A stretch of 64,000 nucleotides of DNA from Chara braunii. Its lineage: Eukaryota > Plantae > Charophyceae. A model generated the notes under the pieces. It did no database searches. It worked only from the letters and a program-made list of their open reading frames with translations, and had not been told where the DNA came from. The position numbers were made by a program, and so were the translations under genes. The DNA lies in NCBI GenBank assembly GCA_003427395.1, contig BFEA01000009.1, positions 5,442,467 through 5,506,466 on the forward strand, written 5' to 3'. Below are positions 1 through 30,731 of this stretch, in pieces (the first letter of the stretch is position 1; each line of letters starts with the position of its first letter).

Positions 1-2862
1 AGGGCCTTGATACCAACCTTGATGGGCACGATGGCGATGAAGTCGTCATGACTAAGGCAAGCACTCCATTGGCCACGCCCGTGATTGACAAAAAACAGGC
101 CGCTCTTCCCATCGAGTATCAACAAAAATCACAACTAACAACTTCGAAGTGTGTATGACGGTGGCCTGGCGAACGCCATGATCACTAGGCTGGCTGCCAC
201 CATGAACACTACCCAGTCGGATGCAGTCAGGACCGCTGCCAGCTATACAGGGTGAATCACGATTCGTTCTTACAGCCCATGAGAATGAATCTCCCCCTAA
301 AACACGGGAAGATACCTTTAGAAAAAACTTTACTCTTGGGCGCAGCTCCCACTGCTCACACCGTCCAAACTATGCACCTAGTGCGGAATCCACCATGGCC
401 ATGCACTTTATAATGTTCCAAAACCCCCAGTTAGCATTTTACCCCGCTCGATTCCGTGGAGGAATGTGCGAGATATTAGTTTTTCAGTTCCACTGGTCCT
501 CTTCTCATCCTCCTCGACTTCTCCACGCACCAACTTCTCTCCCTTACTCCTATTCTACCAACCCACACGCCAGACTAACCCCACCACTCACTCCATCTGA
601 CCCAAAAACTACTACTTCACACCTCTCCCCACATAATCTCACTAAGAATCGAGCATGCTATAACTTGTCGCGCCCGCCATACTCTATTTTCACCATTTTC
701 TTTGCTGAATGTATCTGGTACAAATCAGCTTCACCTTCATTCCCTTTCTTTCCTGCCCTTGCTACCCTCGTGCTTCCTGTTTTTCTCTACCCCCCTCAGC
801 CTTTGAATGTCGCTGGTCATCAGGTAAGTATCCACTTCCCGCAAGACTACACACACGGAGATGAAGATGAACACACCAAGCACTACGACGGCCACGACTT
901 GGTCGGCGACGCTCCTCATGGCCACGATGATATCGACCAGGTGAACTTGGAGATCACGATTAGTCAATCTGCTCGTGACAGAGTAGCCTGCTCCGCTGCT
1001 CACAAAATTTTCAGTATGAGAATGAATCTTTGACTAGAACAGGGGAAGATACATCCTCATACTTCGACTCTTCCTATAATGCTCCCGCAGTCTCTCCTGC
1101 TCGTACTGGCTTACCTGTTGCCCAATCCAACAATCTGATGTGGCCAATAGATCCGTAGCGCCTCAAAACCCCCACTTCAAGTCTTCACTCGCTCGTTTCT
1201 GTTGAGAAACGGGCGAGATCTGCCTTTTCCCAAGCGACCATATCCAACGCCCCGTCACCTCCGCGCATTATTTTTCTTCTCTTCGTCCCCTTCTACTAGT
1301 CCATCCTTCAAACTAAAAACCCCACCTGACTCGCCTTGCCTCAAAACCTCAGGTTAGCACCTTCCCCTGCCAAATTTCATTAAGAAATAGGCATGCTGTA
1401 ACCTTTCACTCTGCCATATCTCCTAGCTCCGACGTTGTTTCTGAACTTTTCTCCGTCCTCCTTCGAATACACCTGGCGCGAAACTGCATCCAAGTTCATT
1501 CCCCCCTTTTTTTTTGTACCTGCTGCTTCCCTTCTCGTGGTGCTGCGCTCTCCTGCACTGTCCCCCTCCCTTCTAACCCTTTCCCTCTCTCCTCCTTACT
1601 ACCATTCCCCCAGTAGTCCACGCTGCCTTCCCTTCTCCGATGACACTCACAATCGGCAAGCAAAAAGAGACGATCCTCTTTATTTATACGGGTCAGCCTT
1701 GTGCAGGGGCAGGCTGTATTGTTCCAATTCTAACGGATGTCTCGAAGGACAGTAGCACGGTAGCGGTATCTCAGCAGTTCGTGGATTTATCCACCGAACT
1801 AGGCTTGCTGGTTTCACGGTCGGTCTTGAGATCGGTACCGGACCACGCCCCTCAATGGGACTTACAAAGTAAAAATAAAAAGAATAACAAATAAAAAAAT
1901 AAAAAATAAATTAAAAATCTAGGAAGAGTTATGAGACAGTGGACTAGGGGAGGAGGGCCGTTGGCGCTTGGTCCTCGGTCCCCCCTCCCGGGCTCGTGGT
2001 CGGAACCCCCCGCAAAAAGCCAAGGGGGATAGTCCCACGGGACCCTCAACCCTTCGGCTCACTCCAATGCACTCCTCCGTTGCTCTGCTGCTCGCTGCTG
2101 GCCTCGAATCCCGGGATCCGCCTGGTGAAAATCCAATAATGTAACCTGTAGGGCTAAGCCCAAGCTTGGACAGGCTAGGCGCTTCCCTATATGTGAACGG
2201 TTCGGCCCGCCAGCCTGGGCCTATAGCAGCAGCCTTAAGGCTGCTGCTGCTAACTTCCCCCCTCAAGCCCACAGTTCTATAGGCGCATCTCAGTGGGCTC
2301 ACATGCAGGCTTCCACTCGGCCTGCCATGCAGATGGCCCCGTAGTATTATTGCCACCAAGTTGGGGCTTACCCCACGCTGCTTCTTTCTTGGAAAGCCGC
2401 TTTTCCGCCATCTCTACGCCGGGAAGCCCTGGCCTCTACTATGATCCGTGCCACCCTTACTCAGGTCTTGGCGGCGCCGCCTGCTACTGGCGGTGCACGG
2501 TCATCCTAGTGCCTGCGAAATTCCTCTCAGTGCGACCTCGAAACGCCAGTCCCCAGTAAGTTAGACAACATCCTCCTCCAGTCACTGCTTTACCTGGTCA
2601 AGGCAACGCTGCCCGTAACTTTGCCCGTGCGTGCGAGGTAGCGACCGCCTCAGAGACTTTAGTTTACTCTCACTTGTTCTACTGGCGTCGCATGTCTACC
2701 TCGACCCGGGCTCGGTCAGGCTAGCGCGTGCCCACAAAGTGCACGCTCACACACCCTCTAATCAACACAAATGGGACGCGCCCCTTGATATCATCAGAAG
2801 CGGTCTTCCTGTAAGCTGCAAAAATGCGCCCAAATACCCTTGTAAGGGTGTTTGGGCCGACA
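1..2862 (-). repeat. 3' LTR of element A (partial)
   Basis: Colinear with 19996-22409. Similarity ends at ...GGGCCGACA (2862), which reads TGTCGG on the minus strand. Confidence 0.93.
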
Positions 2863-4783
2863 ATTTTCCAGACCTTATTAAATGACGTCCCCGTCGCGTT
2901 GGGCAATAAAAGCTATAAACACAACCACATCTTGCTGACAAGGAAACAACCAATCCGGTTCCCCGGCTCGACTTCGTTCTAGGTTGTCTTATCAATTTGG
3001 CCCTGTTACGGCGTTCCACTGCCAGGATTTCAACCTGGGTTTCCCACTTCCTGGCCTCGGAGTTAGGGGATACTTTGTTCCATACTATAGCATAGTACCC
3101 ACTCCCCGGTAGTAGGTTGATAGTCCTCTCCCTTCGTCGTAGACATTCGCCGGTTCACCGTTGGGCGCCATATTTAGTCATCGTCCCACGAACGGGGTCA
3201 TAACTTAGGATGCGGGCCCTAATCGAGACCTCTCAAAACACGGGGCGCCTCTAGTCCCCCAAATGGTAATACTTACCATCTCAAATATCACAATAAACAA
3301 CCATCCCCGAGTCTTACACAGATGGCTTCAGGTCTCCATCTTGGCCCACCATGGAACGGTTGATCACGCCGAATCCACGGCCCACCGCGTCGTTATGTAG
3401 CGATGGTGCCCTTGTTGGTTACGCAATGATAAGCAACTCTTCCTATCTTGGTACCCCGAAGAGTCCCGACTCTTGACCTAATCGACCCCAATGACTTTCC
3501 CTCTAGCTAAGCCTCTCTGAGTGGCCGACCCTTCAAGACTTAACCTTTGGTAAGCCATGGTCCCGCTGCCAGGTTGTGCCGGTCAGCGGCCCTCGTCGGG
3601 AGTTAGGTTCTACAGTTCCAGCGATGCTAAGTATAGCCCCTTAGCTTGGTCTCACAATACGTCCCTTAGACTGACTTCATTATGGTCTAGCACTTTCTTC
3701 AAAATCTTTCGAGAAACCAAAGGATCACATACCAACTGCCCACGGGATTATGTGGAGGGATAGTGCCTTTCTCAACCATTCCATCAAAATCCTCAGTAAT
3801 TCCACAGGGTCGTGCCTTCCTCACTTTGATCAAAAGCAGATAAGGTCACACGTCTTTTAGGGATACAATATTCTTCAAAGTTTCATCATAATTGCCAGAG
3901 ATTTTCATCCGTTATTCTCACAAAATACTTGGTCTTTCCTCGTCAGAGTTTTACATACGCACAACATTTATCATCACTATAGCAACTCTTCTGAGTGCTC
4001 TCACAAATTTCATCCGTTTAAGAAAGTCCAATCGGCCATTGGACTTCCCTCTCTCTTTTCCAAGTCACACACAAATAAAACACAACTTTAGTTGTGATCT
4101 TTACATATCATCATTCCATCTGGATAAAACATATCATACCATCTCTCTCAAAAAGTTTGCGAGCACTTCCTCCCATCATACTTTGGGCTCCACTTGTCCT
4201 TGGGACAGGGATGCGCAAGTACAGTGAAAGAAAGCGCAGATCAATTCACTTCACAACATTCATCTCATCACGCCATTATTCATATGGGCACGTCAACAAA
4301 CTGAGAGTGAGTGTGACATAACACACACAACACAAAGACAAGGTTTGAGATTCGCATATATACACAGGATATGGGGCCCTGCAATGAGCAAAGGCTCCTG
4401 TCCATATCACAAAAATCAAGGTATTGTACAAAGAGCTTAGGTACCCAACAAAGATTTAAGGTATCCAAGTGTCGAAGTATCAGGACTCGACAATCACTCC
4501 CCACTCACGAGCGTTATTCTACAAGGGTATTAATACTCTACATCACATTAGTGAAAAAGAGAAAAAATAGTCAAAATCGCACTCAGTGTTATCTTATGTA
4601 TAGAAAAGGTCTCCAAATCTATAATGCGAAAGTAACATCTCATTACTGGCTCAACTAGCTGATGTACATGGGTCTGATCCAATCCTCCATGTATCCCTCT
4701 ATATACAAGTAACCATCAGTCAGAGAGTCAGGGACGTCTCGCGTATATTAGACTTGGACCTTTCCGGACCTTATTAGAAAACC

Positions 4784-7531
4784 CTACTCCTGATCACTCA
4801 TGACCTCCTGCAACTGCCTATACAACTGCGCCCTCACTCCATCACAAGTCTTAGGAACTAGAATTCCACTTCTATCTCTCAACACCCTAGATGACTCCAT
4901 GGTAACCAAACCATTCGCCTCATCCTTGAGGTTCTTGGGGCAATCATCAGATCGATGTTTGCCCTTCTTACAATAGAAGTATTTGCCAACCTTCTTCTGA
5001 AACATCTTGTCACCTTTCTGCGAAGGTACTGCTGACGGGGCTGCATGTCGCTCTGTCACCTGCTCGCATCACCTGCTCGCCGATACGTCCCTCTGGCCCT
5101 GACCCAGTTGCCCAGGATCCCAATGCATCCCGCAGATCTGCAGTAACAGGCATCTCCTGAGGTACAGCCACCTCCTTACATTCCTTCAAACCCCTCCTTC
5201 ACTCAACCTCCAACATGGTCCGACCCACGCTCGCCTGACCCTCCTGCTGTCCCATGACCTCTCCTTGAGTAGTAGGTAGAACTACCTCCACTCCCATTGC
5301 CTCAACTGATGGTCTCTCTTCTGGCATTGCTGGTCTCTGCCCGAGTGTTAGACCAGCTGGCAACCTCCACTCGAACTCTTCGACCTCTGCGCCCTTCTCT
5401 GCTAGCACCCCTTGCGGCTCCAACATCTCTTTGTCTATTAAAGGAATCTCTTCACCTTCTTGCTGGTATGCCCTCTCTTCCTCCTTCTGACACTTGAAGG
5501 TGTCCTCCGTAGGTCGTTCCCTGATTCCGAATCTTTGGACCTCTGTCCAATCCACCACTGTAGTTGGAGCCTGTCGCGTACACTTGGCCTCAAGGTCTTG
5601 TATCCTCTTCTCCCACTCAGCCTCCTTTGTCTGAAAGGAAGGTTGTTGTGCTTGCAAGTAGGCCCTCAGGACGTCATTGACCTTGTTAAGGGTCTGGTTG
5701 ACCTGCCTGATGGCCTCGTTTTCTGCCCAAACTTTCTCCATGTCTGCTCTTACTGCCTCCATCTCTTTGTTTTGCCTTTCCAAACCTTTCTTCAGGTCTT
5801 CGATCTCTCTTTCCCATTCCACCCTCTGGTCATATGCTTTTTGAGCCACCTTGATCAATCTCTCTCCAACCTTCTGATTTGAAGCTCTGGCTGCTGCGAA
5901 GTCTTCCTTCATCATGCCCCTCAGATTGAGTAAGTCTGTGGAGACCAACTTGACTCCCATCTCCTGGTGATGCCTTCCAGATCTCCCTGCAGCATCCATC
6001 AGCTTGTCAAAGCTGACCCAGACCCCTGAAAATAGGGGAAGGTCCTCCTCCTGAGTGCAAGCGCCCTGTCCACTCTTGCCATCCACCTGCTCAGGCTCTT
6101 TCCCCTGCCGCATCCTCTCGTGCAGCTCAGCAAGGTTCTTTATCCTGAGCTGGACCTTGATTTCCTGATCCCTTGCCGACCTCTCTTTCCTGTCCAATTC
6201 CTTCTCTTGGGCAGACTGCTCTTCCCTCTGATCCTGCCCATGTGGCTCATGAGGCATGCCTGGCTCTATGCATGGCATAGGACAATCCACTTCCATCTGA
6301 GCAGGCTGTGGAGGCACCTCTGGACCACCTGACCCTCGTGCTCTCTCGTGTCTATGGGATCTGTGCTCCTTCTTCCTGTCCTCCCTCAACGGAAAAAATT
6401 TCTAGAATTAAATAATCATTCTGTAGTAAAATTACAATCTAAATTTTAAATTTTCATTCCGTCTTTAAAAATATCATTCGAATTTTTAAAATTTTTCATC
6501 TTACTTGCAAACTTTCATTCCAAGATTCGGGTACCCCTCTTATTTGGACTACATGCTAGAGATGGAATGAAAGTGTGGATGAGTTCATGAAATATTTTAA
6601 TTGGACTTTCATTCTAAGTAAGGATTTTCAGTCATAAATAGGTTAATCCAATCGAAATTGGAAGATATTTGTTGTAGTAGAATGAAAATTTACTTAAAAC
6701 ATTTCATAAACTTGTCCAGCCTTTCATTCCATCTTGAACAAGTAGATGTTATTGGAAGGGAAAACTCATATTTAGACGGGAATTTATCAAATAAAACTGG
6801 AAATTTTAGAATTGGACGAACATTAGAATGATAATTTATAAATAGGAAGATTTTTTTCTTTTTGGAATTTTTTTCAACTTTTATTTCTCGTGGGAATTTT
6901 TCTGTTGCTCTACGTCCCTGATGACGTGCCTCGTTCAAAGGTTCTCCTCTCCTCTGCCTCTGGATCCCTTCTTCTCTTTTCCAAACTTCCTCTCTCACCT
7001 ACCAGACGTACTGGAGTATAGTAGTTTCACAATAACTTCTTGCAATGTCCCCAACTCATAGCAGGCGCCACAATGGATTTGACGAGCGACCTGATGTGTC
7101 GCTTCACGTACAGGAGGAAGCTTCCTATCCTCTACTCTCCTGAGATGTCGAGCTCATCCGCATACCGGTCGTAGGCCCATAAAAATTCCCCCAGATTAGT
7201 GGAGTCAAATCGAATGGGCTGTCCATCTCTTCCCACTGGCAACGGATGCAAACCCTCCATCTTTCTCTCAAAATCCTGCCAGGTTAGTGACTCCCTGACA
7301 AGGCCGGCAATGGGGTCTCCACTCGCCTGTGCCTCGTACCTCTCTCAACATCCTAGTACCATCCCATCCGAACTCCCGTGCATGCCGTTCGAACTCAATC
7401 TGGAACAGCTCAATGTTCCCTCCCTGGAAAACGGGAGGCCTGTCTTCTCTCCTGATGCCCATCTGCGCCCTCTGTCTGGTCGCCCCCAGAGGGGTTTCCA
7501 CTGGCCCTGCCCCTCCCCTTCCTCTTGGCAT
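4784..7531 (-). pseudogene. Extra ORF downstream of pol in A: two Gag-N-like modules, coiled coil, C-terminal CCHC-type knuckle
   Basis: Fragments PVFQGGNIELFQIEFERHAREFGWD and IRFDSTNLGEFLWAYDRYADEL, a 396-aa E/K/Q/R-rich ORF (5199-6389), and YFYCKKGKHRSDDC. Homologous to 30732-32804. Confidence 0.8.
6387..6907. mobile_element. Non-autonomous TIR DNA transposon (MITE-like), 521 bp, 2-bp TSD CT
   Basis: AT-rich island with ends CAACGGAAAAAATT and AATTTTTCTGTTG, CT on both flanks and internal TTTCATTCC repeats. Removing it plus one CT restores the host reading frame. Confidence 0.85.
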
Positions 7532-7793
7532 AGCTGCCTCAAGCGGTGTCAAGCCTGCACAACAAGGAGGAGACAACCTGGAGCACACAGAGGGTAAGCA
7601 GGTTGGACAACCACAACAGGAGATAGACATAGCCTTCCCACAACTATCCCAACTATCTTCCTACCCACATATGCAGACATACACACATGATTCTAACCAA
7701 AAACTCACAACCTGTCACGCTATTCTACTAAGACACTATCCCACACACTCTACTTATGCCAATACTTCTACATAAAGTACTCAGAGAGTGACT

Positions 7794-9344
7794 CTAACTG
7801 GTACGATCCATGCTCACCTCGTCACGAGCCACAAATTTCTTCAGCCTCGAACCTGATACCCAGTCCTTCCATGTCGTCCCATTCAATTCCTCAATTTGGT
7901 AGGCTCCATGCTCACGACACCTGGTGACCCTGTACGGCCCCAACCACCTCTTGTCCAGCTTCCGTGACCACTGCTTCTCCAGGGATGAATCATACAACAG
8001 CACCACGTCTCCCACCTTGAGGAGTTCTTTCCTTACCCGTGCCATCTTATCCCACCTGAACTTGTCCTTGCTACGGTTGACCGCCACTCTACTTGCTGCT
8101 CCCTCAATTTTGTCCTTTATGGCGCCAATCTGACGTGCTCTCAAATCCAACAGTTCCTCAAAGGTCTGATCAGTCTCAAGGTCTTGCCGCCTCCAGGACT
8201 TTAGGAAGCTCTCAATAGGAAATGTTGCGTGCCTACCATACCATAGCGTGACCGACGCATAGCCGGTGCTTCTCCTAACAGTGATATTGTCCACGAAGAA
8301 AGCGACTCTCAGGAAGTTCGGCCACTGATTGGGTCTACCATCAGTCCACTTGGCGAGAAGATTTGTGATGGTGCTATGACCTCTTTCCACCGGTGCATTA
8401 GCCTGAGGGTGCGCTGCGGTAGTGTACTCGGCGATCACCTCATACCTCTTCAAAAGAGCCTTCACTTCAGCACAAGTGAACTCAGACTCTCTGTCTATCA
8501 CGAACCTGGAGACAAAGGGATAACGCAGGTAGTACTCTTCGATGCATCGGGCCAGTGTCTCACGAGTCTTCGTGCGAATGGCCTGGCCATCCACAAACCC
8601 AGAGAGGTTGTCCCGCGCATCAAAGATGAAGTTGTAGCTCCCTATCCCCAGCGGCATCGCCAACAGGTCCAAGTGCACGACCGCTCCCACCTCACGAACA
8701 TATCTTGGGTGAAGCAGCTCTCTAGCCCTAAGAGAGGACCGCTCCTAGCATGGCATGCAAGACTTACAATAATCATCGATCATCTCCCCCCTGTCATCCA
8801 AATAGTATAACTCGTGTATCTTGAGGTAAGTCGTGTTCGTGCTTCTGTGGCCACCTGCCGTACCATCATGTAGTGCTACCATAACGTAAATCTGACGAGC
8901 GACGCCGCAGACTACTGTCCTGGGAGTCTTCCCTTTGCTTTTCATGAATAGATGGTTGTCCCTTACCAGAAAGCTCGGCCTCATCTTTAGAACCCTTGCG
9001 CAAGCATCTCTTTCCCTCATCTCACACGACAACAGCATTCCGAGTTCAAGGTATACCATCTCATACTCCTCTGCTCGAAACGCTTCCTTGATCTCTCCCT
9101 CGTCAAAATCGTCGTCTTCCCTCTCGTGAATCACATTGTCACCTTCTTCCTGCTCTACCACCTCTTCCTGATCTAGCACCGTATTCCTGACCACCTCTTC
9201 CTGAAGCAGCGCATTTGCTAGCAAATACACCCCACCTATCGTCTTCTCGTGCTGGCCCACCTGCAGCACCCCATCCTCAATCGTGAGCAAGTCCTCATGC
9301 AGTTGGTACTTGCCTGCCAGGGCCGGATCCATCATCCAGTCCAC
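7794..9344 (-). pseudogene. Integrase of A (HHCC finger, DDE core, GPY/F motif)
   Basis: LHDGTAGGH...CKSCMPC; VHLDL...IDRESEF...VERGH; RWLGPYRV. Split by stops and a frameshift. Confidence 0.93.
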
Positions 9345-9347
9345 GCC

Positions 9348-11114
9348 TCACATTCCCCACGAGTCTTCTTCCACATAGGGCTTAAGAACTAAGTCTGACC
9401 GTCCTGCATGTCCCGGAGGCGCAAGCCACACAGGACGCCCTTGAGTAATGTAGCTACCTACGGCCAACGACCAGGAGTTGATGTGGAGTCGCACATCCTC
9501 CTCACTGTCCAAGAACTCGTCGACTGGTGGAGTATCCTCGGTCATTCCTTGACTGTTTTTATCCCAGTCGACTCGACTCAACCCATCGGCTCTATTTTTG
9601 TTCCCAAGAATTCGCTCCAGCTCGAAATCAAACATCCAGATGTACGTCAGCCATCTGGCGATAGTTGGATTTGAAGGAGCGAAGTTCTTGAGAGACCCGG
9701 CTAGAGCGGTTGGGTCCACCCTCAATACAAACCTGTTGTCAAAGAGGTAGTTCTTGAAAATCCTCAAACAGTGGAGAACTGCCAAGGTCTCGCGCTTGAA
9801 CTGAGAGTAGTTCCTCTCCAATGTGTTGAGCGTCCGACTCTCAAACCTCAATGGTCGTTCTTCTCCGTTGGGATCTCGTTGAATCAACACTCCTCCCAGC
9901 GCAGTTGGCCCTGCATCTGTCTCTACGACGAAAGGTCCGGTCATTACTGCCGCATGATCCGGTACTCCCAATACTAGACCTCCTTCCTCGAACTCCTTTT
10001 TCAGACCTTCTATCACCGACTCTTGCTTATCTCCCCATTCCCAGTCTTGACCTTGACGCACAAGCTTTCGCAGTTGCTCAGTCTTCGCCGCAAACCCTTT
10101 TATGAAAATCCTTCCAAATCCACACGTTCCCAGAAAACTCCTCACCTCTGTGATAGTCTGGAACGGTGTTGGCCATTCGAGAATCTTGTTAGCCTTCTTA
10201 GTATCTGGTCGACCACTCCTCTCGTCGCACACAAATCCTAATATTGTAGCACCGCTCATGAAGTGCCTTGACTTCGACCCACTGGCAGTGAGGTTATGCT
10301 CCTTTAGTAGGTCCAGGACCTTGCACAAGTCTTGTACATGGTCCCAGACGAAGCGCCTGATTCCTGGCATCACCTCCCGCTCATCCTTCTCCTTAGGCCC
10401 CTTCACGGCCAGGTCATCAATGTAGGGCTGCGTGATGTGAGGACTTATGGGCTGCATGATCCTCACCATGTGCCTCTGAACCATGGCGACCGCATTCATC
10501 CATCCTTGAGGTGAGACGTTCATGTGAATCAACCCCCGAGGTGTATGCATAGCCGTCATTGGTCTGTCTGATGGGTACACAGGGAATTGATCATAACCTG
10601 AATATAAGTCAATGAGTGATATAATGACTCTCCCAGCGCATGCCTCTGAAACCACATCAGCGTTAGGGAGACCACATGCGTCCCTCACCGTTACAGCGTT
10701 CAAGCGCTGCAAATCCTGTACCCACCTCAAAGTCCCATTGGGTTTGACAATGCAAAACCAGGGGGATGCATACGGTCCACTCGAGTAGTCTGCCACATGA
10801 GTGCGGATCTTCCCATCGAGGTAGTTAACTACCTTCTCTTCATCGACTGGATTAGGATATCGCGCACCTCGTGAATTCCATGGTTCGTGAGGTACAGTGT
10901 GTATCCTAATCATTGGGATTATATCCACGTCCAATCGTCCTCTCTCATCGTTACTGAAGGCATATGCAGCATGCCTTCCTCTTATGGTTTCCACCACAAG
11001 CTTCTCTTCCTGCGCCATAAGGAAGCCAAACTCCCCTATGATCGTCGTTTTTTCTGTCTCAGGATTGATACGGCATGGCCTATTCTCCGCGTTCTCTCGC
11101 ATCTGCCGTATCAA
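9348..11114 (-). pseudogene. Reverse transcriptase and RNase H of A
   Basis: LIDLYSGYDQF, PQGWMN, YIDDL; VETDAG, RFESRTL, NRADGLSR. Confidence 0.95.
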
Positions 11115-11185
11115 CTCTCATTCTCGCTCATAGTATACTTCTTGCTCTTCGGTGACGAGTACGGGAACAGGGCGGCACTTCTGAT

Positions 11186-12022
11186 CTACCCTTTTGTACC
11201 GCATGTGTGCACCTTGCTTGAGCCCACCTCTAAAAAAGGCCGAGTTGCGCTTTGGGGTTGTGCTCCACTTGCTCCACCTGTCTTTCCAGACGTTTGATAT
11301 ACCAGCTCCATTTCTCCGGAGCCCATCTTCTCTACCACTTTCTCTCTCAAGGTTTCAACAGCCTTTGGATCAACCATCCCATAGGTCGATACTATATCCA
11401 TAGCATCACCTATGTTTGCCAAGCTCAATGCTAGTGCCTCCGGCTCTCTTCTCTCCTCATACTTGCTGGCTTCAATCCTTAATCTTTCCTCTTCTGACTC
11501 CGCTATAGTGAAAGAACCAGGGTTGGGCTGGTTCCTTATGCTTCTAGGCCCTGTGTTCTTGCAAGTTATGACCTCATAGTTCCTGCATACCGGATCGCAC
11601 AGAACGAGGAACATAGTTTCGTCATGCTTGTTGAGTATGACGGCCTCCGTCCGACTTAGGAACGACCTACCCAATAGAATAGGATGGTCAAGATCAGGCA
11701 TTACGAAGAAACAACTTCTCACTTTCACTTTCCCAATCTCTAAAGTTACCGATGATGAGGTCCCTATGAACACTGATCGACTGTTTGCCCCCATCAGGAC
11801 CCCATTGTCTGAGCGGTCAATCTCCATCCCTAGGCGCAAAGCATGCTCCTCTTTTATAAGGTTCATCTCTGCGTCACTGTCCACCATTGCCGTACATGTC
11901 TTCCCTTTCACTACTACATCTAGGCACCCACATGCAACGAACTTACAATCCATCTTAGTTCCGGTCTCAGCCCATTCAGCTTCCTTAGGGATTATAGTCC
12001 CTAATTGCACGCCGGCCACCAT
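11186..12022 (-). pseudogene. Aspartic protease region of A
   Basis: AMVDSDAEMNLI (degenerate D-S/T-G-A) and ILLGRSFL. Homologous to MVDTGAKMN in B. Confidence 0.88.
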
Positions 12023-12900
12023 CTTCCTGGATAAACGTGCTCTGAGCCTTGCCCCCCTTGAGCCAAATTCTTCGCTTTTCCCTGGGCCTTTGTCAACTTC
12101 AAAGGCTCAGGCTCCTCTTCCTCCTTTTCTTCCTCTGCTTGCACTACCGCTTTCTTCGCTTTGCCCACGGTCTGTGGTGCTGCCATAGTCTTTCTTGCTG
12201 CCTTTGCCTCTTTCTCTGCATCAAGTTGGGCAACAACCTCCTCTATCAGTTTCTTAAAGTCTCGCCCGTCACTCGTCGTGGCGTCCAAGGCCTTCCTTTT
12301 CTTCCTAGCCTGTCGCATTTGGAAGATATCCACTTGATCCAGTTCCCCATCTATCACGCCCTCTTTTATGGCAGCCCAAGTCAACTTCTTCCCCGGCACA
12401 GCCTTCTTGGTTAGCGCGGAGGCCTCCCAATTCTTGAAGTGCCCCAGGAAGGTTGCACACTATTCCTCTTTGGCTAATCCTGGGACCTTCCTTGCCATCT
12501 TCTCGAATGCCGTAGTGAAAGCCCCCACAGTGGAAAACTCATCGCGCCGTAACATTTCTAGGTCTGTTTTTGTTAGCAGACCATCCCCTAGCTTAAAACG
12601 CCTATGCATTTCCCCCTTGAACTTGGCCCAATCTCCCCCTGCTCCAGCAACCACCTTCATTACCTCGGGCCGGGTTTCTCACCAGACGTATCTGGGTAGG
12701 ATTTGGAACTTGTTTGCATCCGACACCTCGCCTGTAACCTGTTCCAACAACTCTAGCCATTTGGACACCCTTTCCTCTTCAAACCAGAAGATGTCAACCT
12801 TCGGTACCTGTAGTCGTGCTAGCTCTCTCTTCTCAATGGCCTTCACAAAGTCTTCTGGCATAGCTGCCGGGCCCCGCTCAATTCCATCTGCGTCCGACAT
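12001..12900 (-). pseudogene. gag of A (fragmented; knuckle region deleted)
   Basis: MSDADG...ERVSKWLELLEQV...YVW aligns with B gag (ERVSHRLELLEQV...YVWW). Starts about 320 bp after the PBS. Confidence 0.85.
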
Positions 12901-13216
12901 CTTTACCTCCCTTGGCCAACTAACCAATTAGAAAGGGAGGGTAGCCCACCAGACAGCTTGTCAAGTTCTAGGGGACTTGTCCTAAATCCTATCTAGCCGT
13001 TCCACCTCTATGTTTAGTCAGTCATTCTACTCTTAGTTACTCAAAGACTTAAATACAACCTTCAATCGCACTTCTGAACACTTAGTCTTGTTATTATATC
13101 CTACACAATCCTCTTATATAAAACACTCCAAACCGTAAGCTTTTGTCGTTTTGCCTAGATCATCAGCCTGCACTTAACCTGGGTTCGTTCTCTTAAGGAC
13201 CCCGGTAGGCAGCCGA

Positions 13217-13236: not shown

Positions 13237-13238
13237 CC

Positions 13239-19200: not shown

Positions 19201-22200
19201 CCTGAACAGCAGCGACCACAACCACTCCTTGAAATAGAGAAGCGGTACTTTACTTAAGAGAGCAGCAGCCGGATCCTAGCGAAAAAGTGACACAGCCCCT
19301 GACAACAGCCTTTTCAGGTGTTGTCTCACGCAGTCAGATAACCCAATTAGTAGTAATCCCTCGAACAACCCCCCCTTACGAGAGTCTCCAAGCCAAAGTA
19401 GCTGCCATATTTCTTGAGACAGTGATGACAGCTCATTCGAACGTCAGTGAGGGATTTATTTTCAGAGCACCGGCAGCCAGCCGTGATACCCAGGCTGTGC
19501 TTCAAAGGTACAAGCCGCACTTGGCTGTAGTCGCGGTGGCACTCAGATACATGGTAAAGGCACTATTGTCCTCTTCGCATAGTCGGCATAGTCTCCCCTT
19601 TACCAGCCCCTCTCTCTTATTCGCTGTCATTAACACATGAATGTTCCTGGCTGCTAATACGGCCAGGTTCGATCGGACACTCAGGTCTCCTGTTGAAGAT
19701 TTTGGTCCAAATAAAACTACACTGATGATTACAACTGTCTGGAAAAACGAACCCTGCCCCCCCCAAAAAAAGGGAAGAAAAAAAGGAAGAGAAAAAAAAC
19801 AAAAACGAACCCCCACTTAATGATGGCGTCAGTCAGAGTAATCTTGCTCAGCATGGCTTTCTCAAAATAGGTGATGCCAAGGCAGCACAAGCTCAAGTAG
19901 CACGGCTACCTCCCGTTCGATTTGAGGATGAACTCTCCACTGAAAGAGAGATCAGGCACTTTCTTCCACCGGAGGCAAACACGGCAAAGAGCAATAGGGC
20001 CTTGATACCAACCTTGATGGGCACGATGGCGATGAAGTCGTCATGACTAAGGCAAGCACTCCATTGGCCACGCCCGTGATTGACAAAAAATAGGCCGCTC
20101 TTCCCATCGAGTATCAACAAAAATCACAACTAACAACTTCGAAGTGTGTACGGTGGTGGCCTGGCGAATGCCATGATCACTAGGCTGGCTGCCACCATGA
20201 GCATTACCCAGTCAGATGCAGTCAGGACCGCTGCCAGCTATACAGGCTAAATCACGATTCGTTCTTACAACCCATGAGAATGAATCTCCCCCTAAAACAC
20301 GGGAAGATACCTTCAAAAACAACTTTAGTCATGGGCGCAGCTCCCGCTGCTCACACTTCCCAAACTATGCACCTAGTGCGGAATCCACCACAGCCATTCA
20401 CTTTATAATGTTCCAAAACCTCCAGTTAGCATTTTACCCCGTTCGATTCCGTGGAGGAATGTGCGAGATATTAGTTTTTCAGTTTCACTGGTCCTCTTCT
20501 CATCCTCCTCGACTTCTCCACGCACCAACTTCTCTCCGTTACTCCTATTCTACCAACCCATACGCCAGACTAAGCCCACCACTCACTCCGTCTGACCCAA
20601 AAACTACTACTTTACACCTCTCCCGACATAATCTCACCAAGAATCGAGCATGCTGTAACTTGTCACGCCCGCCATAGTCTTTTTTCACCATTTCCTTTGC
20701 TGAATGTATCTGGCACAAATCAGCTCCATCTTCATTCCCTTTCTTTCCTGCCCTTGCTACCCTCGTGCTTCCTGTCTTTCTCTTCCCCCCTCAGCCTTTG
20801 AATGCCCCTGGCCATCAGGTAAGTATCCACTCCCCGCAAGACTACACACACGGAGATGAAGATGTCATCCTTCAAACTAAAAACCCCACCTGACTCGCCT
20901 TGCCTCAAAACCTCAAGTTAGCACCTTCCCCTGCCAAATTTCATTAAGAAATAGGCACGCTGTAACCTTTCACTCTTCCATATCTCCTAGCTCCGACGTT
21001 GTTTCTGAACTTTTCTCCCTCCTCCTTCGAATGCACCTGGCGCGAAACTGCGTCCAGGTTCATTCCCCCCTTTTTTTGTATCTGCTGCTTCCCTTCTCGT
21101 GGTGTTGCGCTCTCTTGCACTATCCCCCTCCCTTCTAATCCTTTCTCCCTCTCCTCCCTACTGCCATTCCCCCAGTAGTCCACGCTGCCTTCCCTTCTCC
21201 GACGGCACTCACAATTAGCAAGCAAAAAGAGACGATCCTCTTTATTTATACGGGCCAGCCTTGTGCAGGGGCAGGCTGTATTGTTCCAATTCTAACGGAT
21301 GTCTCGAAGGACTGTAGCACGGTAGCGGTATCTCAGCAGTTCGTGGATGTATCCACCGAACTAGGCTTGCTGGTTTCACGGCCGATGTTGAGACCGGTAC
21401 CGGACCACGCCTCTCAATGGACTTTCAAAGTAAAAAATAAAAAAATAAAAAATAAAAAATAAATTAAAAATCTAGGAAGAGTTATGAGACAGTGGACTAG
21501 GGGAGGAAGGTCGTTGGTGCTTGGTCCTCGGTCCCCCCTCCCGAGCCCGTGGTCACAACCCCCCGCAAAAAGCCAAGGGAGATAGTCCCACGGGACCCTC
21601 AACCCCTCGGCTCACTCCAGTGCGCTCCTCCGCTGCTCCACTGCTCGCGGCTGGCCTCGATCACAGGATCCACATGGTGAAAGTCCAATACTGTACCCTA
21701 TAGGGCTAAGCCCAAGCTTGGACAGGCTAGGCGCTTCCCTATATGTGAACGGTTCGGCCCGCCAGCCTAGGCCTATAGCATCACCCTTAAGGCTGTTGCT
21801 GCTAACTTCCCCGCTCAAGCCCACAGTTTTGTAGGCGTGTCTCAACGTTCTCACACGCAGGCTTCCACTCGGCCTGCCATGCACGCGGCCTCGTAGTATT
21901 ATTGCCAACAAGCTGGGGCTTACCCCACGCTGCTTCTTTCTTGGAAAGCCGCTTTTCTGCCATCTCTACGCCGGGAAGCCCCAACCTCTACTATGATCCG
22001 CGCCACCCTTACTAAGCTCTTGGCGGCGCTGCCTGCTACCGGCGGTGCATGGTCATCCTGGTGCCTGCGAAATTCCTCCCAGTGCGACCTCGAAACGCGA
22101 GTCCCCAGTAGACAACATCCTCCTCCAGTCACCACCTTACCTGGTCAACGCAACGCTGCCCGTAACTTTGCCCGTGTGTGCGAGGTAGCGACCGCCTCAG

Positions 22201-22409
22201 AGACTCTAGTTTACTCTTACTTGTTCTACTGGCATCACGTGTCTCCCTCGACCCGGGCTCGGTCAGGCTAGCTCATGCCCACAAAGTGCACGCTGACACA
22301 CCCTCTAATCAACACAAATGGGACGCGCCCCTTGATATCATCAGAAGCGGTCTTCCTGTAATCTGCAAAAATGCGCCCAAATACCCTTGTAAGGGTGTTC
22401 GGGCCGACA
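13239..22409 (-). repeat. 5' LTR of element A, 9171 bp
   Basis: Termini TGTCG...CGACA, abutting the PBS. The right part repeats 1-2862. Conserved blocks are colinear with solo LTR 45087-52975. Confidence 0.9.
16275..17630. repeat. Array of about 13 hairpins, core GCCCT-AACTTA-AGGGT
   Basis: Loops at 16298, 16457, 16520, 16583, 16648, 16710, 16772, 16867, 16979, 17138, 17238, 17342 and 17543. The copy at 16394 is an N-flanked duplicate. Confidence 0.92.
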
Positions 22410-22929
22410 ACATATGCCCGAACTTACCTTATGGAGGAAAAATTTGGGTATTGTGAAAAACTAAAGGAGGAAGTACGCACGGGAATCTGCGTGGATGGTA
22501 TTCCCGCCATGTTATGCTTGGTCTATAACTTCTGGTCTGGGGATTGGTAACGGTAAGTGAAATTGAAGAAGAAGAGAGAGAGTTTGTATTCCAAGAATGA
22601 TAGGAAATAATGTTGAGATGATAGGAAAGCATGAGGGACAAAGAGGGGAAGATGAGGAAGCTGAAGGAATACATTTACCTGCCTAAGTTGTCAGGGGTGG
22701 AAGGAGTAATTAATGAGTAACTGAGAGGAAATAAGGGTATGACATAAAGAGATAGGAAACCTTATGCTAAAAACGTTCATGTCTCGAGTAGGATTAAGAA
22801 AGAGAATAGAAAATTATTAACTATAATGGAAAGGATATGTTGCTACCAAATAGGACTTATGCATAAGTATTGTGTTTTTTTTTTTGTCTCTTCCTTTTGC
22901 ACCACTCTGGCCACCGGAGATCGCCCAAA

Positions 22930-23982: not shown

Positions 23983-26400
23983 ATGGGAGACGCTAATGGG
24001 AGAGGAGGACAAGGGTCCATAACCGCAGTTGAAATCGTGCAGTTACTAGATAATAGGAATGTCGAGAAGTCTCAGCTGCCCAGGATAGAAAGTTTCCCCT
24101 TCAAAGGAGAACGGGTGTCGCACCGGCTTGAGTTGTTGGAGCAAGTATTCAATCGACCAATACCGACGGAAAATTTCATCCAACTGTTTGAATACGTGTG
24201 GTGGGAATTTTCCCCGGAGATTGAAAAGATTGTGGTTGATGCCCAAGGAGAATGAAACAGTTTCAAGAAGGAGATGTAGAGAAAGTACAAGCTGGGAGAT
24301 GGGTCACCTACGATCGACTAGCTTCACAACATCAACATGAATGATTTCACTACAATAGGAGTTCTTGCAACAACCTTCGAGTAAATGGCGGAACGAGTTC
24401 CAGGACTTTCTGAGGAGATGCAGTGTGTTATCTTTCTGGGAAAATTTTCGGACTATGAGATCATGGAATTGACCTAGGGAGGTGCACCAGGACGAAAAAC
24501 GTTATGGGAGACAATAAAAAGAAACTTGGCATCTGGGGACTTGGACCAGGTGTTCCATCACCAAGTAAAGATGGAAAGGAAGAGAAGAAAGGAGATAGGT
24601 GTCATACAATGGGCAGACTCTGCCCTAGGAGGAGTACTGAGCAGTATGGTAACACAACTGAAAGAGTTGAAGGATAAGGTGGAATCAAGAAAAGTGATGG
24701 TTGTAGGACAAGCAACGAACAAAAAAAGATATGAAGGGAAAAATGAAGAGGACAAAGAAGGAAAGAAACCTGAGCAGATGGTACAGTCCAAGAAAGTCCA
24801 AAAGCAGAACCAAAATCAGGCATCAAGGAAGCAAGGAGCAGGAAAAGGGCAAAACTCGCAGCAAGTTGTGACACCAAATGTCCCAGGAGCACTCACCCCA
24901 ACATCTCAATTTAAGCCTTGGCCGGTGGTAGCTCCTATGGAGGCTTGGCCTAGCTACTACCCCGGGAATCAATGGTCGGGTTTCGGTCAAATTGGGATGT
25001 ATCAAAATTTGCCCCAAGTTCAGGAAGCTGGGGCAGGACCATCAGAAGGTCGAGGAGCAGATGGGGGTCCGTTGCAGCACGCTCTGCCGCCACAAGGTAA
25101 TCAAGGTCAAAATCGGTTTCAGGAGCAGGGGCATGGGCAGAGACATGGTAAGGGTAGAAATGGAGGACGAGGAAATGGTCAAGGAGGAAGAGGATTCGGA
25201 GGAAGAGGAAATGGCTGACAAGGAGGGAGTTAGGGAAATCAAGGAGGTGCTCAGTCCGAGAACTACAATCAGGTGATTTTTAATCAGATCAGACAAGGAT
25301 ACAACCAAGGTTATGGTCAAGGGTATGGTCAGGGTTATAACCAGAACTATGGTAGAGTATTTGAAAGAAATGATGAACAATGGAGCAGTCAAGGGGCCGG
25401 GAGAGGGTGGATAGATTACAACGAGTGCATATGTATGCATTGTACGATAAAAGGGCATACTGTGAAGATATGTCATGTTAAAAAGATGGACGAACAAGAC
25501 GGATTGATCACGTCAAGCATCAATGGGGATGCGTTCGATAAACGAGGGAACCGGATTGACCCGAACATCCACGAGGGCACAAGGAACGAAGCAATCAGGA
25601 TTGTGGGGCTCGGACCCAGCACCCCAACTATGTTTCGTATATGGCAAGAGAAAGAAGACCTATTTGTTTGGTTAGAGGAAATTGATAAGCCGAGTGACCA
25701 ACTAAGGAAGGGAGGAAAGATGAGTGAGGAAGAAAAAGATACCCCACTAATTGAGATTGAGCAGAAGAAGACGATGTAAGTAAATAGTCAGCGAAAGAAA
25801 GCTTAGGAAGGATGAAGGACATGATAGATAAGATGAGTAGATTAAATACAAGAATGACTAGTATTTGCGAGGAAGTAAAGGATCTAGAAATGAGAATGCC
25901 GCATGTATTCACCATGAGTCAGGGGAAGGAGGACGATGAGCTGAGAGCCCCTAACCCCAGAGCGCTGAGAGCCACTCTGGCTGCCGGGTGAGAAGCAGCC
26001 TACAAAGCTCTTAGAAACTTTGTCCCTCATACTGCACGAAAACCTAAGGGAAGTAATGCGCCCAAGGAACCAACCCAGACTCTTGTGTTGCCTCAAGGGG
26101 GAGCTTCCATTGATATAGAAGAAGAGGAGGAGGATAAAGATGAATTGCTGAGGGAAGAAGAGGATAAATGCACTGAACAGAGGGCTAAGAAATGAAAACA
26201 TGATTTAAGGAAGGAAAGCAAAAGACTGGGCAAAAGTCAAAGAAGGAGCCATTGAAGAAGGGCTAAACCTGGAAAATTTGGTAAACAAGCTTCTTGATGG
26301 ACATAATGAGTTGTTGAATTTGAAGGAGATTTTGACAACCGCACCGAAGCTCAAAGAGTTAGTAAAAGCAAAGTTGGCACGGAAGAGAGTAGCGACAGTA
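23983..26400 (+). pseudogene. gag of B with G/Q/R-rich region and CCHC knuckle
   Basis: MGDANG... N-terminus homologous to A; RGG/GQG repeats; CMHCTIKGHTVKIC at 25432-25473. The gag/pol boundary is approximate. Confidence 0.88.
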
Positions 26401-29400
26401 AGATTGGGTGATCTAATTCCCAACGAGGTGAACTGGACAATAACTGGAAGCAAGATGGACATAAAATTTTGTAGGAACAGGGTCCATTGATGTCAATATC
26501 AGAGGGAAAGGATGCCCTGGGATGGTGGATACTGGAGCAAAAATGAACATTATGAATTCAGAAACAACTGAGAGACTAGGATTGAAAATCGATAGGAGAG
26601 ATTATAAATACCTCGATGGGGCTAGCGGAAAATCAGGGTACATAGGTATTGCATCTAATGTAATCGTGAAAGTAGGAAGTGTTAGACTTCGCTCTTGTGT
26701 CTACATCATGTTTAGTCTGAATCTTCCCATATTATTAGGATGATCCTTTTTATCACGATCAGAGACCCTCATCATGAATAAGCATGACGAGACCATATTC
26801 GTGATTCTATATGATCTTTGCAAGTGGGAACTTCGAGGTCATTACCTTTAAAAATACAGGTCCCCATAGCTTGAAGAACCGCCTCAATGCTGGGTCATAT
26901 ACCTTTGAGGAGTCTGAGGATAGGAGGAAAGAACTAGAATGGGGATCTGATGAGGAAGATGAGGAAAAGGAAGGTGAAGGGTTAACATTGAGTTTGGCCA
27001 ACATTGACCAAGCAATGTACATGGTATCCGCTTATGCGATGGCGGAGCCTGAGGCAATTCGGGCCTTGGTTGACAAGCTGTATGATTACCTTGAAGGGGG
27101 GAGGATGAATTTGGTATACAGACCCCCCCTTCACGAGGAGAAAATGCAGGGACCATATGATGTTTTTAGGGGTGGGCTCAAGCAAGGGGGAAAAAGGAGG
27201 TACAAGACAGTAAACAAAAAGAGTCACCCACTTCCGGTCTTAGTAACACATGAAGGAGTGTACTATGAGCAAGAGAGAAATTTGATAACGCAAATGAGAG
27301 AGAAATAGGGAACAGAGCCCTGCCGTATTAGCGAAGAGACCGAGAAAGACTTGATCATTGGCGAGCCTGATTTTTTGATCAAGCAGGAGAGGGCATTAGT
27401 GATCGACCTAATGAAAGAAAAACATTGTGCATATGCTTTTAACGATGAGCAGAGAGGGAGGTTGGATGTTGATAAGGTAGGGATGATCCGAATGCACACG
27501 GTTCCGCACCAACCTTGGAAAATTAAAGGGGTCAGGTACCCAAATCCCAATGATCAGAGAAGGGTTGTGGAATACCTTGATGGAAAGATTGACTCTCACG
27601 TGGCATGTTTTTCTAGCGGGCCTTATGCCTCACCATGGTTCTGCTTCATTAAGCCGAATGAGATACTCAGGTGGGTGCCAGATTTACAAAGGTTGAATGC
27701 TGTGACGGTTAGGGATGCTTGAGGGCTCCCCAAAGCTGATAAACTCTCTGAAGCATGTGCAGAAAGATATATTATCTCACCCATAGACCTGTACTCTGGA
27801 TACAACCAGTTTCTAGTTTATCCGGCCGATAGAACGATAACTGCAATATACACTCCAAGGGGACTTATCCTCATGAACATGGCACCCCAAGGATGGACGA
27901 ATGCGGTAGCCATGGTACAACGAAGTATGGTTAGGGTTATGCAACCGATTAGTCCGCAGATTACGGAACCTTATATCGACGATCTTGCAGTAAAAGGCCC
28001 AATAGTGAAAAATGAGCAAGAGGTTGCACCTGGCATAAGGAAGTTTGTCTGGGATCATGTCAATGATCTCAGAAAAGTGTTTGATCTGTTACAAGAGTAT
28101 AACCTCACGGCGAGCGGACCAAGTCCAGGCACTACATGAGAGAGACCACCATTTTGGAGTTTGTATGCAATGAGCAAGGTCGTCATCCAGACACCAGGAA
28201 GATGAATAAAATCCTTGAGTGACCTACGTCGTTCAGAAACATTAGCGAAGCGAGATGTTTCCTTGGAACATGTGGATTCTGGAGGATATTCATTGAGAGG
28301 TTTGCTGCTAAGACTGAGCACGTAAGGAAGTTGGTAAGAAAGAATCAGGAGTGGGAACGGGGAGAGAAGCAGGAACAAGTGGTGAAAAATTTAAAGAAAG
28401 AATTTGAGGAAGAAGGTCTCGTGCTGGGGATCCTAGACTATGAAGCCGTTATAGAGCGACCGTTTATCACAAAAACTGATGCCGGACCCACTGTCTTGGG
28501 AGGAGTTCTGATACAGGCAGATCTTGAAAGGAAAGAAAGGCCTTTGCGTTTTGAGAGCCGAACGCTCAATACTAACGAGCAGAACTATTCGCAATTCAAA
28601 AAGGAGGCTCTGACCGTACAACACTGCCTACGTATCTTTAGACACTACCCCAACAGAAGAAAAATTGTCATGAGGATAGATCCGACCGCTCTTATGTATT
28701 CCCTCAAGAATGTTTCACCCACGGATCCTACAATCGCCAGATAACTCACATACATCTGGATATTCGATTTTCAGATGGAACATATCCCAGGAAACAAGAA
28801 CAAGGCTGATGGGTTAAACAATATAGAATGAGAAAAACCTGTAAATGCCAAGGAGGAAACGCCACCAGTAGATACATTCTTGGACGAAGACAATATGCAA
28901 CTTCATGTAAACTCATGAAAACTTAGTATCAACGACAAGGAAGCGAGAAGAGGAAAGCGCATGTGGTTTGCACCATCAACTTTTGTGAAAATCGAAGGGT
29001 TGGTGTTGAAACCTTTCGTCGAAGAAGACCCATAGGGAGAAAGGAATGGAGAGTGGATGGCGGAACTGAATTTGGTAGAAAGCTACAGATTGACAGACGA
29101 TCCGGTAAGAATTGAGGCAGGAATAAGACAAGTGGATCAGCACCTACTGACGATGGGAAGAGTACATTGTCTTGTCAACTCGCTCCTACAAGTATGAAGA
29201 AGAGATAGTAAAGGCAGACGAGATAGTGTTGGGAGATGAACCTGAGTTTGATGAGGAGATGGAAGGAGAGAAGTTTGAGCAGGGTGAAATATCGAAAGAT
29301 TTCCGGGAAAACAAATATGACGGATTTCATTTAGAAATGAGACTTCTTCTCTCCAGCGATAAGCGAGAAAGGGATGTTAGTGAAAAGACGCTTCGCATGA

Positions 29401-30550
29401 GATATCACTATATAGTAAGGGGAGACTATCTCTTCATCAGGGATAAAAGGGGACGTCTTAGGAGGGTCATTTGTGGCAGAAATTGGCAAATTGACATTAT
29501 AGCAGCCCTCCATGATGGACTCGTAGGTGGTCACAAAAGTTTTGCCACTACCATCAAAAATGTGATCGAATTATACTTTTGGGAAGGTATATACGGGATA
29601 ATTCGAAAATACTGCGAGTCGTGCATCCATTGCCAAGTCAGATCTCCGATCAGATACAAAGAACATCTACATCCAAGGTATATCAAAGATGTGGGGGCAG
29701 TGATCCACTTGGATCTTCTGGCAATGCCATTGGGGATTGGAGGGTATAATTATATCTTTGCTGCAAGAGATAACCTTACGGGTTTTGTTGATGAAAAAGT
29801 CATCCGAACCAAGACTGGAGCAGTCTTGGCTGATTGCATCAAAGAATATTACCTTCGATACCCCTTCGTGATAGAGTTTACGATGGATAGAGGGTCAGAG
29901 TTCACATGTGGAGAAGTGAAGGAATTGTTGGATGACCTTGGAGTAATCGTGAAATATACAACCAGGGCACATCCTGAGGCCAACGCACTAGTGGAGAGAG
30001 GTCACAGTACCATCACGAATTTATTGGCCAAATGGACAACTGGAAAACCGAATCTCTGGCCAAAGTTCCTGCGAACCATTTTTTTTGTTGAGAACGTCAC
30101 AGTAAGAAGGACTACAGGTTATGCCCCCGCGACGTTGTGGTATGGAAGACATGCTACTTTTACGATAGAAAGTTTCCTGAAAACATGGCGGAGACAGAAT
30201 CTTAATATAACCTGTCACTCGAAGAACTGCTTGACATCAGAGCAAGGCAAGTCAGTGTTACAGAAGAAAGGATTCAAGAGGCAGTCGAGAAGGTGGCTTA
30301 CAGTCGTGGGAAGGACAAAGAGAAATGAGACCGGCTTCCTCGCGTGAGAAGTGAACCATTGGCGATTGGGGACAAAGTGCTATTATACGATTCATCCCTG
30401 GAGAAACAATGGTCAAGGAAATTGGTCAAAAGATGGTTGGGACCCTACAGAGTCAGACGTCAGGAAAATCATGGAGTCTGCAAGCTAGAAGAAATGGACA
30501 GAACACCAAGACGAGATTGGGTTTCTGGGTCCAGGCTGAAGAAATTTTGA
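26401..30550 (+). pseudogene. pol of B (PR-RT-RH-IN), many stops and frameshifts
   Basis: VDTGA; PQGWTN...YIDDL; KTDAG...RFESRTL; LHDGLVGGH...CESCIHC; HLDL...MDRGSEF...VERGH; RWLGPYRV. Confidence 0.93.
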
Positions 30551-30731
30551 ATGAGACAGTGGGTGAGTTAAAACTTGAAACTAAGATAAAACAACTTGAT
30601 CCCCTTAAAACACCTTGTGCTAGCATCATGGCGAATCTGACATTGTTACCCAGTTGCTAACACCGTTTTGCGCCTGCCAACCTCTTTTTCTTTTTCTGTG
30701 TGCAGGCACAATCCTGAAAAAAAAAGCGGCA

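Follow-up and report, generated by a model that had tools for sequence, protein, structure and literature searches.

A gag-derived third gene in the env position of Ty3/gypsy retrotransposons of Chara braunii, with a possible role as an RNA-binding accessory factor

The window, by which is meant the whole 64,000-nucleotide stretch of Chara braunii DNA analysed here, contains two retrotransposons, element A on the minus strand and element B on the plus strand, the latter beginning at 22411 (Table 1). Pfam searches on the minus strand of A gave the domain order gag, protease, RT, RNase H, integrase, and the same gag-pol order is found in B, collinear with A; this order places both host elements in Ty3/gypsy. 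There was no Pfam match to a chromodomain after the integrase of A. Two LTR copies are present for A, while B shows just a 3' LTR-like part, and four short blocks in this 3' region of B are collinear with positions 2817-3680 of A. PBS candidates are ambiguous, a G-rich tract is seen in B only, and the outer ends of the elements are cut or lie beyond the window.

Behind the integrase gene both elements carry a further coding region in sense, here called ORF3, which starts 263 nt from the integrase stop in A and about 185 nt from it in B. An earlier note on this DNA gave start and stop positions for ORF3 that are exact for both elements, and described a sense ORF of roughly 700 codons after integrase; the position, the sense and the length hold (about 742 codons in A with the insertion subtracted, 691 codons in B), but the frames are not open in the window. 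The A copy has frameshifts near 7318 and 5044 and stops at 7134, 7029 and 5201, and in the B copy the frame is interrupted several times, by frameshifts as well as stops. Gag and pol in the window are not intact either. Over the insertion in A ORF3, DNA read depth is 7,000-20,000 vs 200-1,200 in its surroundings. An uninterrupted ORF3 protein is visible in database copies, these further copies being database proteins with predicted splices that may be incomplete or may join neighbouring elements. The protein begins with a basic leader, module 1, module 2, a basic stretch and a low-complexity linker, and continues with a helical/coiled-coil region, an acidic linker, a CCHC knuckle, a conserved tail and the stop. 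Two diverged families share the gene, as had been claimed; their pol genes are about 66% identical in DNA, and their ORF3s show no DNA-level alignment. With high confidence, ORF3 is a real third gene derived from gag, in both identity and anatomy.

Table 1. Features of elements A and B in the 64,000-nucleotide window
Feature	Position	Strand	Remarks
Element A 3' LTR	1..2907 (about; ~1-2863)	-	92-95% identical to 19996-22410; runs past window start
Element A ORF3	4784..7531	-	ATG 7531 to TAG 4784; broken copy
A ORF3 zinc knuckle (4940-4981) and Gag-type tail	4787..4981	-	Tyr for first Cys in window copy
A ORF3 helical/coiled-coil region	5562..5951	-	C-terminal end conserved between groups A and C
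AT-rich high-copy insertion in A ORF3	6386..6905	.	520 bp, MITE-like, imperfect terminal inverted repeats
A ORF3 module 2 (capsid N-lobe-like)	7015..7227	-	two in-frame stops
A ORF3 module 1 (capsid N-lobe-like)	7243..7444	-	mapped from database copy P0006; crossed by frameshift near 7318
Pyrimidine tract and TGCAG/G, putative splice acceptor	7555..7578	-	23 nt before A ORF3 ATG; presumed use
Element A pol: protease, RT, RNase H, integrase	7794..12106	-	stops and frameshifts
Element A gag: capsid N- and C-lobe	12001..12900	-	knuckle-bearing C-terminal part missing vs database copies
Element A 5' LTR	19996..22410	-	cut at 22410
Element B gag, own knuckle (~25432-25473) and tail	23983..25776	+
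Element B pol (PR, RT, RH, INT)	26362..30550	+	50-73% aa identity to A, per domain
Pyrimidine tract and TGCAG/G, putative splice acceptor	30688..30705	+	26 nt before B ORF3 ATG; presumed use
Element B ORF3	30732..32804	+	ATG 30732 to TAA 32804; broken copy
B ORF3 module 1 and beginning of module 2	30808..31110	+
B ORF3 CX2CX4HX4C knuckle and Gag-type tail	32613..32801	+
B 3' region: G-rich tract at 34359, LTR-like start	33884..34700	+

The relatives found in first searches were all Chara braunii gene models (19 of 19 for the A module region, 5 of 5 for B), as were all ten of the more distant matches looked up. One ORF3 stretch searched against 1.84 billion representatives gave 53 matches, of which 47 belong to the same family and six (P0035, P0042, P0057, P0061, P0062 and P0068) were dropped as unrelated repeat proteins; at the sensitivity of a single sequence, no ORF3 outside Chara was found among these representatives. 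Metagenome contigs were scanned with an integrase query, and none of 68 candidates was confirmed. The best 120 of 179 integrase matches include 115 Chara models, of which 94 run on into ORF3, 16 stop at the integrase and five continue elsewhere; ORF3 is thus present in 94 of the 99 Chara models that extend past the integrase among these best matches. The closest non-Chara integrases in the same set are those of unnamed Pol proteins, 32-36% identical. Five non-Chara Pol proteins stop about 80-110 residues past the integrase and come without sequence context, and are therefore silent on ORF3 outside Chara.

Between A and B, amino acid identity is 42% for module 1 (43 codons) and 37% for the knuckle-tail region (62 codons), vs 41% for the Gag capsid and 70-73% for RT and integrase. 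For module 1, the knuckle-tail and the Gag capsid, identity by codon position is 0.37-0.42 at third positions and 0.55-0.60 at first and second positions; over all regions, RT and integrase included, third positions lie at 0.34-0.43. These figures come from short protein-guided local alignments, in which the first two positions are favoured, and do not amount to dN/dS values. On this sequence comparison ORF3 is apparently under purifying selection at about the level of Gag.

The two tandem modules had been described as resembling the N-terminus of a Gag capsid. They were compared with hhalign, using alignments of 47 rows for module 1, 55 for module 2, 15 for the Gag N-lobe and 12 for the Gag C-lobe, with 40 column shuffles each. 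Modules 1 and 2 match each other with probability 96.5 and a score of 48.7 (shuffled maximum 18.6), and module 2 matches the elements' own Gag N-lobe over 65 columns with probability 83 and a score of 30.9 (shuffled maximum 17.8). The score of module 1 against the Gag N-lobe, 20.8, is no better than chance (shuffled maximum 20.0). Neither module matches the Gag C-lobe in hhalign, with scores of 12.2 for module 2 (shuffled maximum 18.1) and 12.6 for module 1 (shuffled maximum 15.1). From these scores, module 2 is a homologue of the Gag N-lobe and module 1 a homologue of module 2; module 1 is tied to Gag solely via module 2 and the fold. Iterated profiles seeded with ORF3 alone recruited both modules and then true Gag at residues ~35-105. 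The best PDB sequence match of the ORF3 profile is the dArc2 N-lobe (E 0.0012), the Drosophila Arc N-lobes falling at E 0.0012-0.077. Pfam gave no family on the modules; Atlas rows for the modules score below 0.9 and serve as leads only, and an Atlas search with the central region of ORF3 gave no usable match. Two modules are found in 75 models and one in 24, so three or more modules as a rule was rejected.

The predicted model of both modules, from the natural copy P0013 with 25 relatives, has two strand-plus-four-helix lobes (pLDDT 87.5). All of the top 16 rows in a wide VIA structure search are retroelement capsid domains, and the best single-lobe match is to dArc1 residues 46-122 (Z 8.3, rmsd 2.0, 73 residues); a Z of about 8 is, according to the tool, within the chance range of helical bundles, and is not decisive alone but agrees with the sequence results. 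Foldseek had been suggested in the earlier note for the comparison with Gag capsids; with the module model as query, none of its matches reached E 0.001, although the top rows are Arc, copia, PNMA2 and Ty3 capsids. Capsid N- and C-lobes share one fold, and fold alone cannot tell one from the other. In the model of the true Gag of the family (pLDDT 63), residues 35-106 match N-lobes and residues 103-194 match C-lobes. A profile of the Gag C-lobe has no match at or after the modules in any of 99 models, and 34 upstream matches serve as its control. ORF3 comes from Gag, but it is not a whole second gag, since both modules are of the N-lobe type and the C-lobe profile has no match at or after them in 99 of 99 models.

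About 450 residues, including a long coiled coil, lie between the lobes and the knuckle. The coiled coil had been predicted, and a heptad pattern is indeed present, the hydrophobic share being 0.47 at each of two positions vs 0.06-0.39 elsewhere. A terminal CX2CX4HX4C knuckle had been described for both elements. Of 32 ORF3-type knuckle regions from database copies 25 have this form, as does the B copy in the window, but not the A copy; in Pfam the ORF3 knuckle matches zf-CCHC below the cut-off. DUF4100, the label of one Atlas cluster, had no match to ORF3. The tail alone, with the knuckle excluded, matches the Gag tail with probability 91 and a score of 31.4, against a maximum of 14.7 in 40 shuffles. 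No hydrophobic segment was found in 56 ORF3 stretches, none having a 19-residue window at a Kyte-Doolittle value of 1.6 (P0026, P0023 and P0074 were left out of this count because other sequence follows their ORF3); the earlier view that there is no transmembrane segment stands, and an env identity was rejected. Lacking both a C-lobe and a membrane segment, ORF3 is neither an env nor a complete second Gag.

At least four diverged ORF3 groups are recognized (A, B, C1 and C2), along with two more divergent types, P0050 and P0069. Each group defined on ORF3 is one group on the integrase tree, with 3 changes vs 11.4 in shuffled data, and pairwise identities of ORF3 and integrase are correlated (Spearman 0.88; 23 models with integrase and both modules, 240 non-independent pairs). 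The ORF3 modules have a mean identity of 28% between groups whose integrases are 60-72% identical, and so diverge faster than the integrase. A tree of Gag versus ORF3, proposed beforehand, separates the knuckle-tails of 14 ORF3 rows, drawn from all groups, from those of five Gag rows at a 100/100 branch. In a tree of the lobes (60 rows and 72 columns, few for the number of rows), the Gag N-lobes fall into one group, module 1 into another, and module 2 is not resolved. Taken together, the knuckle-tail branch and the groups on the lobe tree suggest that ORF3 arose by a single old event, before A, B, C1 and C2 split. The similarity between the tails of ORF3 and Gag in B had been taken as a sign of gag duplication. 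The match is real and the Gag origin stands, but the likeness is not special to B (31% identity of the B ORF3 knuckle-tail to B Gag, 20-23% to other Gags, and 29-38% to ORF3s of other groups) and the event would be older; a duplication specific to B was rejected, as the ORF3 knuckle-tails of all groups fall together against Gag. P0125 belongs to a Chara family of more distant relationship (integrase 47%); its Gag knuckle-tail, which sits on a long branch, has a mean score of 52 against ORF3 and of 37 against the Gags of A, B and C. Since this tail is nearer to ORF3 than to the A/B/C Gags, capture from a related family is possible, and the donor may have been either the ancestral gag of the element itself or the gag of a related family.

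The alternative of a separately nested element with LTRs of its own was looked for, and rejected: no flanking repeat was found around ORF3 from the spacer to the 3' part in A, a single 12-bp match in B is of the kind expected by chance, and ORF3 is co-inherited with the integrase. It is very improbable that ORF3 is a functionless gag remnant of a once-nested related retrotransposon, with its reads from read-through or stray fragments, for although both window copies are broken and the P0125 tail would allow a foreign donor, gag and pol in the window are broken too, ORF3 without flanking repeats lies just 185-263 nt from the integrase and follows the integrase tree, its conservation is that of Gag with third positions saturated, and the reads are in sense and skip pol. 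ORF3 is multicopy and lies inside elements, and is not a fixed host gene of the Arc/PEG10/RTL8 type; a domesticated single copy may exist at another place in the genome.

TGCAGG occurs nine times in A (10.3 kb) and twice in B (12.0 kb), and in each element one site, right before the ORF3 ATG, is pyrimidine-rich (at least 13 pyrimidines in the 18 bases ahead of it). In 48 (42 + 6) of 166 database models the entry into ORF3 is fixed, seven codons ahead of the Met, and is reached from 27 and five different upstream sequences, respectively; the shared entry point means that the gene finder sees an acceptor, and is not proof of use in the cell. Three oligo-dT RNA runs (X5, X6 and X7) and one DNA run were mapped on 2950-13300 at 85% likeness. 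In X5 (53 reads) and X7 (54 reads) all seven ORF3 bins are covered, compared with none and one of the 15 gag-pol bins. Mean sense depth over ORF3 is 1.26 and 1.05, vs 0 and 0.007 over gag-pol, and DNA depth is 708 over ORF3 vs 1480 over gag-pol. First mates of X5 and X7 lie on the plus strand, the orientation that most stranded libraries are expected to give for sense RNA. The X6 run, flat on both strands, is DNA-like and uninformative. The X5 and X7 reads represent 6-13% of two runs of one study and are mostly 85-95% alike, and so derive from related copies. At the start of ORF3, RNA depth drops over two bins from about 2 to 0, although the integrase is better conserved, a drop that in our judgement is more abrupt than the usual 3' bias. 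No splice-junction read is listed among the reads mapped to 2950-13300 (about 50 per run), so that splicing is only inferred. ORF3 RNA is likely made separately from gag-pol, and is probably spliced; a similar picture could possibly result from the 3' bias of oligo-dT priming, from an internal promoter or from derivatives that carry ORF3 alone.

In capsids of the Ty3/Arc type, N-lobes build pentamer or hexamer rings and C-lobes link the rings, and genomic RNA is bound by the zinc knuckles. A protein that combines two N-lobes with a coiled coil and a knuckle, and that lacks a C-lobe, is proposed to be suited to holding element RNA and touching Gag while leaving the shell open. With about even confidence, ORF3 is read here as an accessory factor. 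It would have an mRNA to itself, probably a spliced one, and the protein would bind the RNA of the element and dock on Gag. An old gag duplication or capture would have put a copy behind pol, and this copy would have lost its C-lobe and gained a second N-lobe before the groups A, B, C1 and C2 diverged. The acceptor before the ATG would be joined to a donor in the leader, in the manner of env. The knuckle and tail would bind element RNA and the coiled coil would oligomerise; the N-lobes of ORF3 would touch those of Gag, and without C-lobe contacts the shell would not be closed. The element could gain a net benefit in the export of its RNA, in RNA selection or in RNA delivery into particles. Such a benefit would account for the retention of a separate 2.2-kb gene by nearly all copies. 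Of the two roles suggested in the earlier note, that of an RNA-binding regulator fits better, and that of a second capsid is less likely.

Several known systems share features with Chara ORF3. Extra ORFs of plant LTR retrotransposons are like Chara ORF3 in the order gag-pol-ORF3, in the sense strand and in an acceptor-like site ahead of the ORF, and ORF3 of Bagy2 is spliced (PMC7264820). The plant ORFs, whose origin and function are described as mostly unknown, often have membrane segments (PMC7264820), whereas Chara ORF3 is hydrophilic and derived from Gag. No gag-derived extra ORF is named in the available sections of that review or of the REXdb text (PMC6317226), and searches of the mainly open-access literature found neither the Chara ORF3 element described nor any other ORF behind pol that derives from gag. 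CERV of Cer1 from C. elegans is a non-env ORF in the env position, expressed from a spliced mRNA and required for genomic RNA export (PMC10309623); unlike ORF3, it has neither a capsid lobe nor a CCHC knuckle in its env-position half, a part without homology beyond Caenorhabditis, and no homology to ORF3 is claimed. ORF3s of bdelloid rotifer LTR elements (env, GDSL, DEDDy, coiled-coil) are separate transcription units and include non-env genes in the same slot (PMC5408684), but they were taken from viruses or enzymes, and Chara ORF3 from gag. The N-lobes of Drosophila Arc1/Arc2 and of the Ty3 capsid provide the fold and the best sequence match of module 2; Arc and Ty3 capsids, however, combine an N-lobe with a C-lobe, and ORF3 has two N-lobes. 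RTL8, acting on PEG10, and Ty1 p22/p18 are incomplete Gag-derived proteins that bind Gag and alter assembly (PMC11684626, PMC4599808). ORF3 differs from them in being a separate gene of the element and in having a coiled coil and a knuckle besides its doubled N-lobe.

These last examples raise the reading of ORF3 as a Gag decoy, whose N-lobes would enter the lattice and stall assembly, providing copy-number control or immunity against sister families. N-lobes without a C-lobe are the anatomy of RTL8, which forms no particles but enters PEG10 particles and lowers their number (PMC11684626), and the Ty1 inhibitor comes from a separate transcript (PMC4599808). ORF3 RNA without gag-pol RNA is what would be expected of a standing repressor, but it fits a helper equally. 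We consider a decoy rather unlikely, though it is the main rival of the helper reading. Ty1 cannot shed p22, which overlaps gag. An inhibitory ORF3, being a gene apart, could be lost from selfish copies by deletion, and still it is kept in 94 of the 99 models extending past the integrase (among the best 120 of 179 matches); the retention of so separable a gene favours a helper. Nor is it obvious why a decoy should be 700 residues long and have its knuckle, tail and coiled coil conserved.

A second capsid is improbable. The modules would serve as N- and C-lobe of a separate or mixed RNA-carrying shell, possibly for cell-to-cell movement in place of an envelope; as N- and C-lobes share a fold, two such lobes might build a shell. 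Two capsid-fold lobes in tandem, joined by a short linker and followed by a knuckle at the C-terminus, mimic the order CA-NC, and the whole two-lobe model can be aligned to dArc1 and copia capsids (Z 8.7 and 6.1), with rmsd about 15. However, module 2 matches the N-lobe of Gag and not the C-lobe (30.9 vs 12.2, the latter within shuffles), the C-lobe profile is silent in 99 of 99 models, and the lobes are parted from the knuckle by some 450 residues that include the long coiled coil.

The accessory factor remains the favoured reading, and a traceable origin, a clear domain plan and a separate RNA make the role of ORF3 directly testable. Chara ORF3 is an extra ORF whose origin can be traced, to a capsid gene, and it accounts for many "hypothetical" Chara gene models as pol-ORF3 joins. 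For capsid biology it offers a natural tandem-N-lobe protein. It also repeats, within a mobile element, the steps by which hosts arrived at Arc, PEG10/RTL8 and Gag-derived restriction factors, namely lobe loss, lobe duplication and new expression. More tentatively, this lineage may have turned a gag copy into an env-position gene with a doubled N-lobe that is active without gag-pol, either as a Rev-like adaptor from RNA to capsid or as a shell-forming RNA carrier that replaces the envelope in a walled alga.

The truncated 5' LTR of element A stands back-to-back with element B at 22410/22411, element B has no 5' LTR, and a short LTR-start similarity (2817-2907 with 34614-34700) is common to the two elements; the junction is therefore possibly a rearrangement or an assembly join. 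The gag of element A runs into the protease region (12001-12106) lacking the knuckle-bearing C-terminal part that is present in database copies, and its loss is an internal deletion in the copy of A in this window. The leader of A also carries a high-copy inserted element, for which no TSD was found; it contains spaced copies of a 20-nt unit (16200-17400), and the region 45200-49100 of the window is 70-83% like it.

Features accompanying elements A and B in the window
Feature	Position	Strand	Description
High-copy element inserted in leader of A	13239-18137		Begins with TG at 13239
ORF of element B, 5' of gag	22867-23700	+	About 195 codons; frame runs on, broken, to about 23700
Stretch between RNase H and integrase zinc finger, A	9000-9500	-	About 200 residues
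Same stretch, B	about 28900-29250		About 200 residues
Broken ORFs	52792-57359	+	Helitron Rep/helicase-like reading
Partial ORF	about 62400-63096	+	Rossmann-type VLVVGASGGVG motif

The broken ORFs presumably resemble Helitron Rep/helicase, and the partial ORF probably belongs to a gene of the host that encodes an NAD(P)-binding oxidoreductase.

The ORF upstream of gag in element B is possibly a 5' extra ORF: a Pfam scan gave no match, one predicted Chara gene model (P0071) matches it, and no counterpart is seen in element A. Within pol, the stretch preceding the integrase zinc finger is conserved between A and B (43% identity over 81 residues), and Pfam placed no family on it in the scanned models. 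In the third gene, the predicted database protein P0030 has two successive lobes of the module 2 type (231-302 and 326-397), a pair that may represent an extra lobe duplication or two copies joined.
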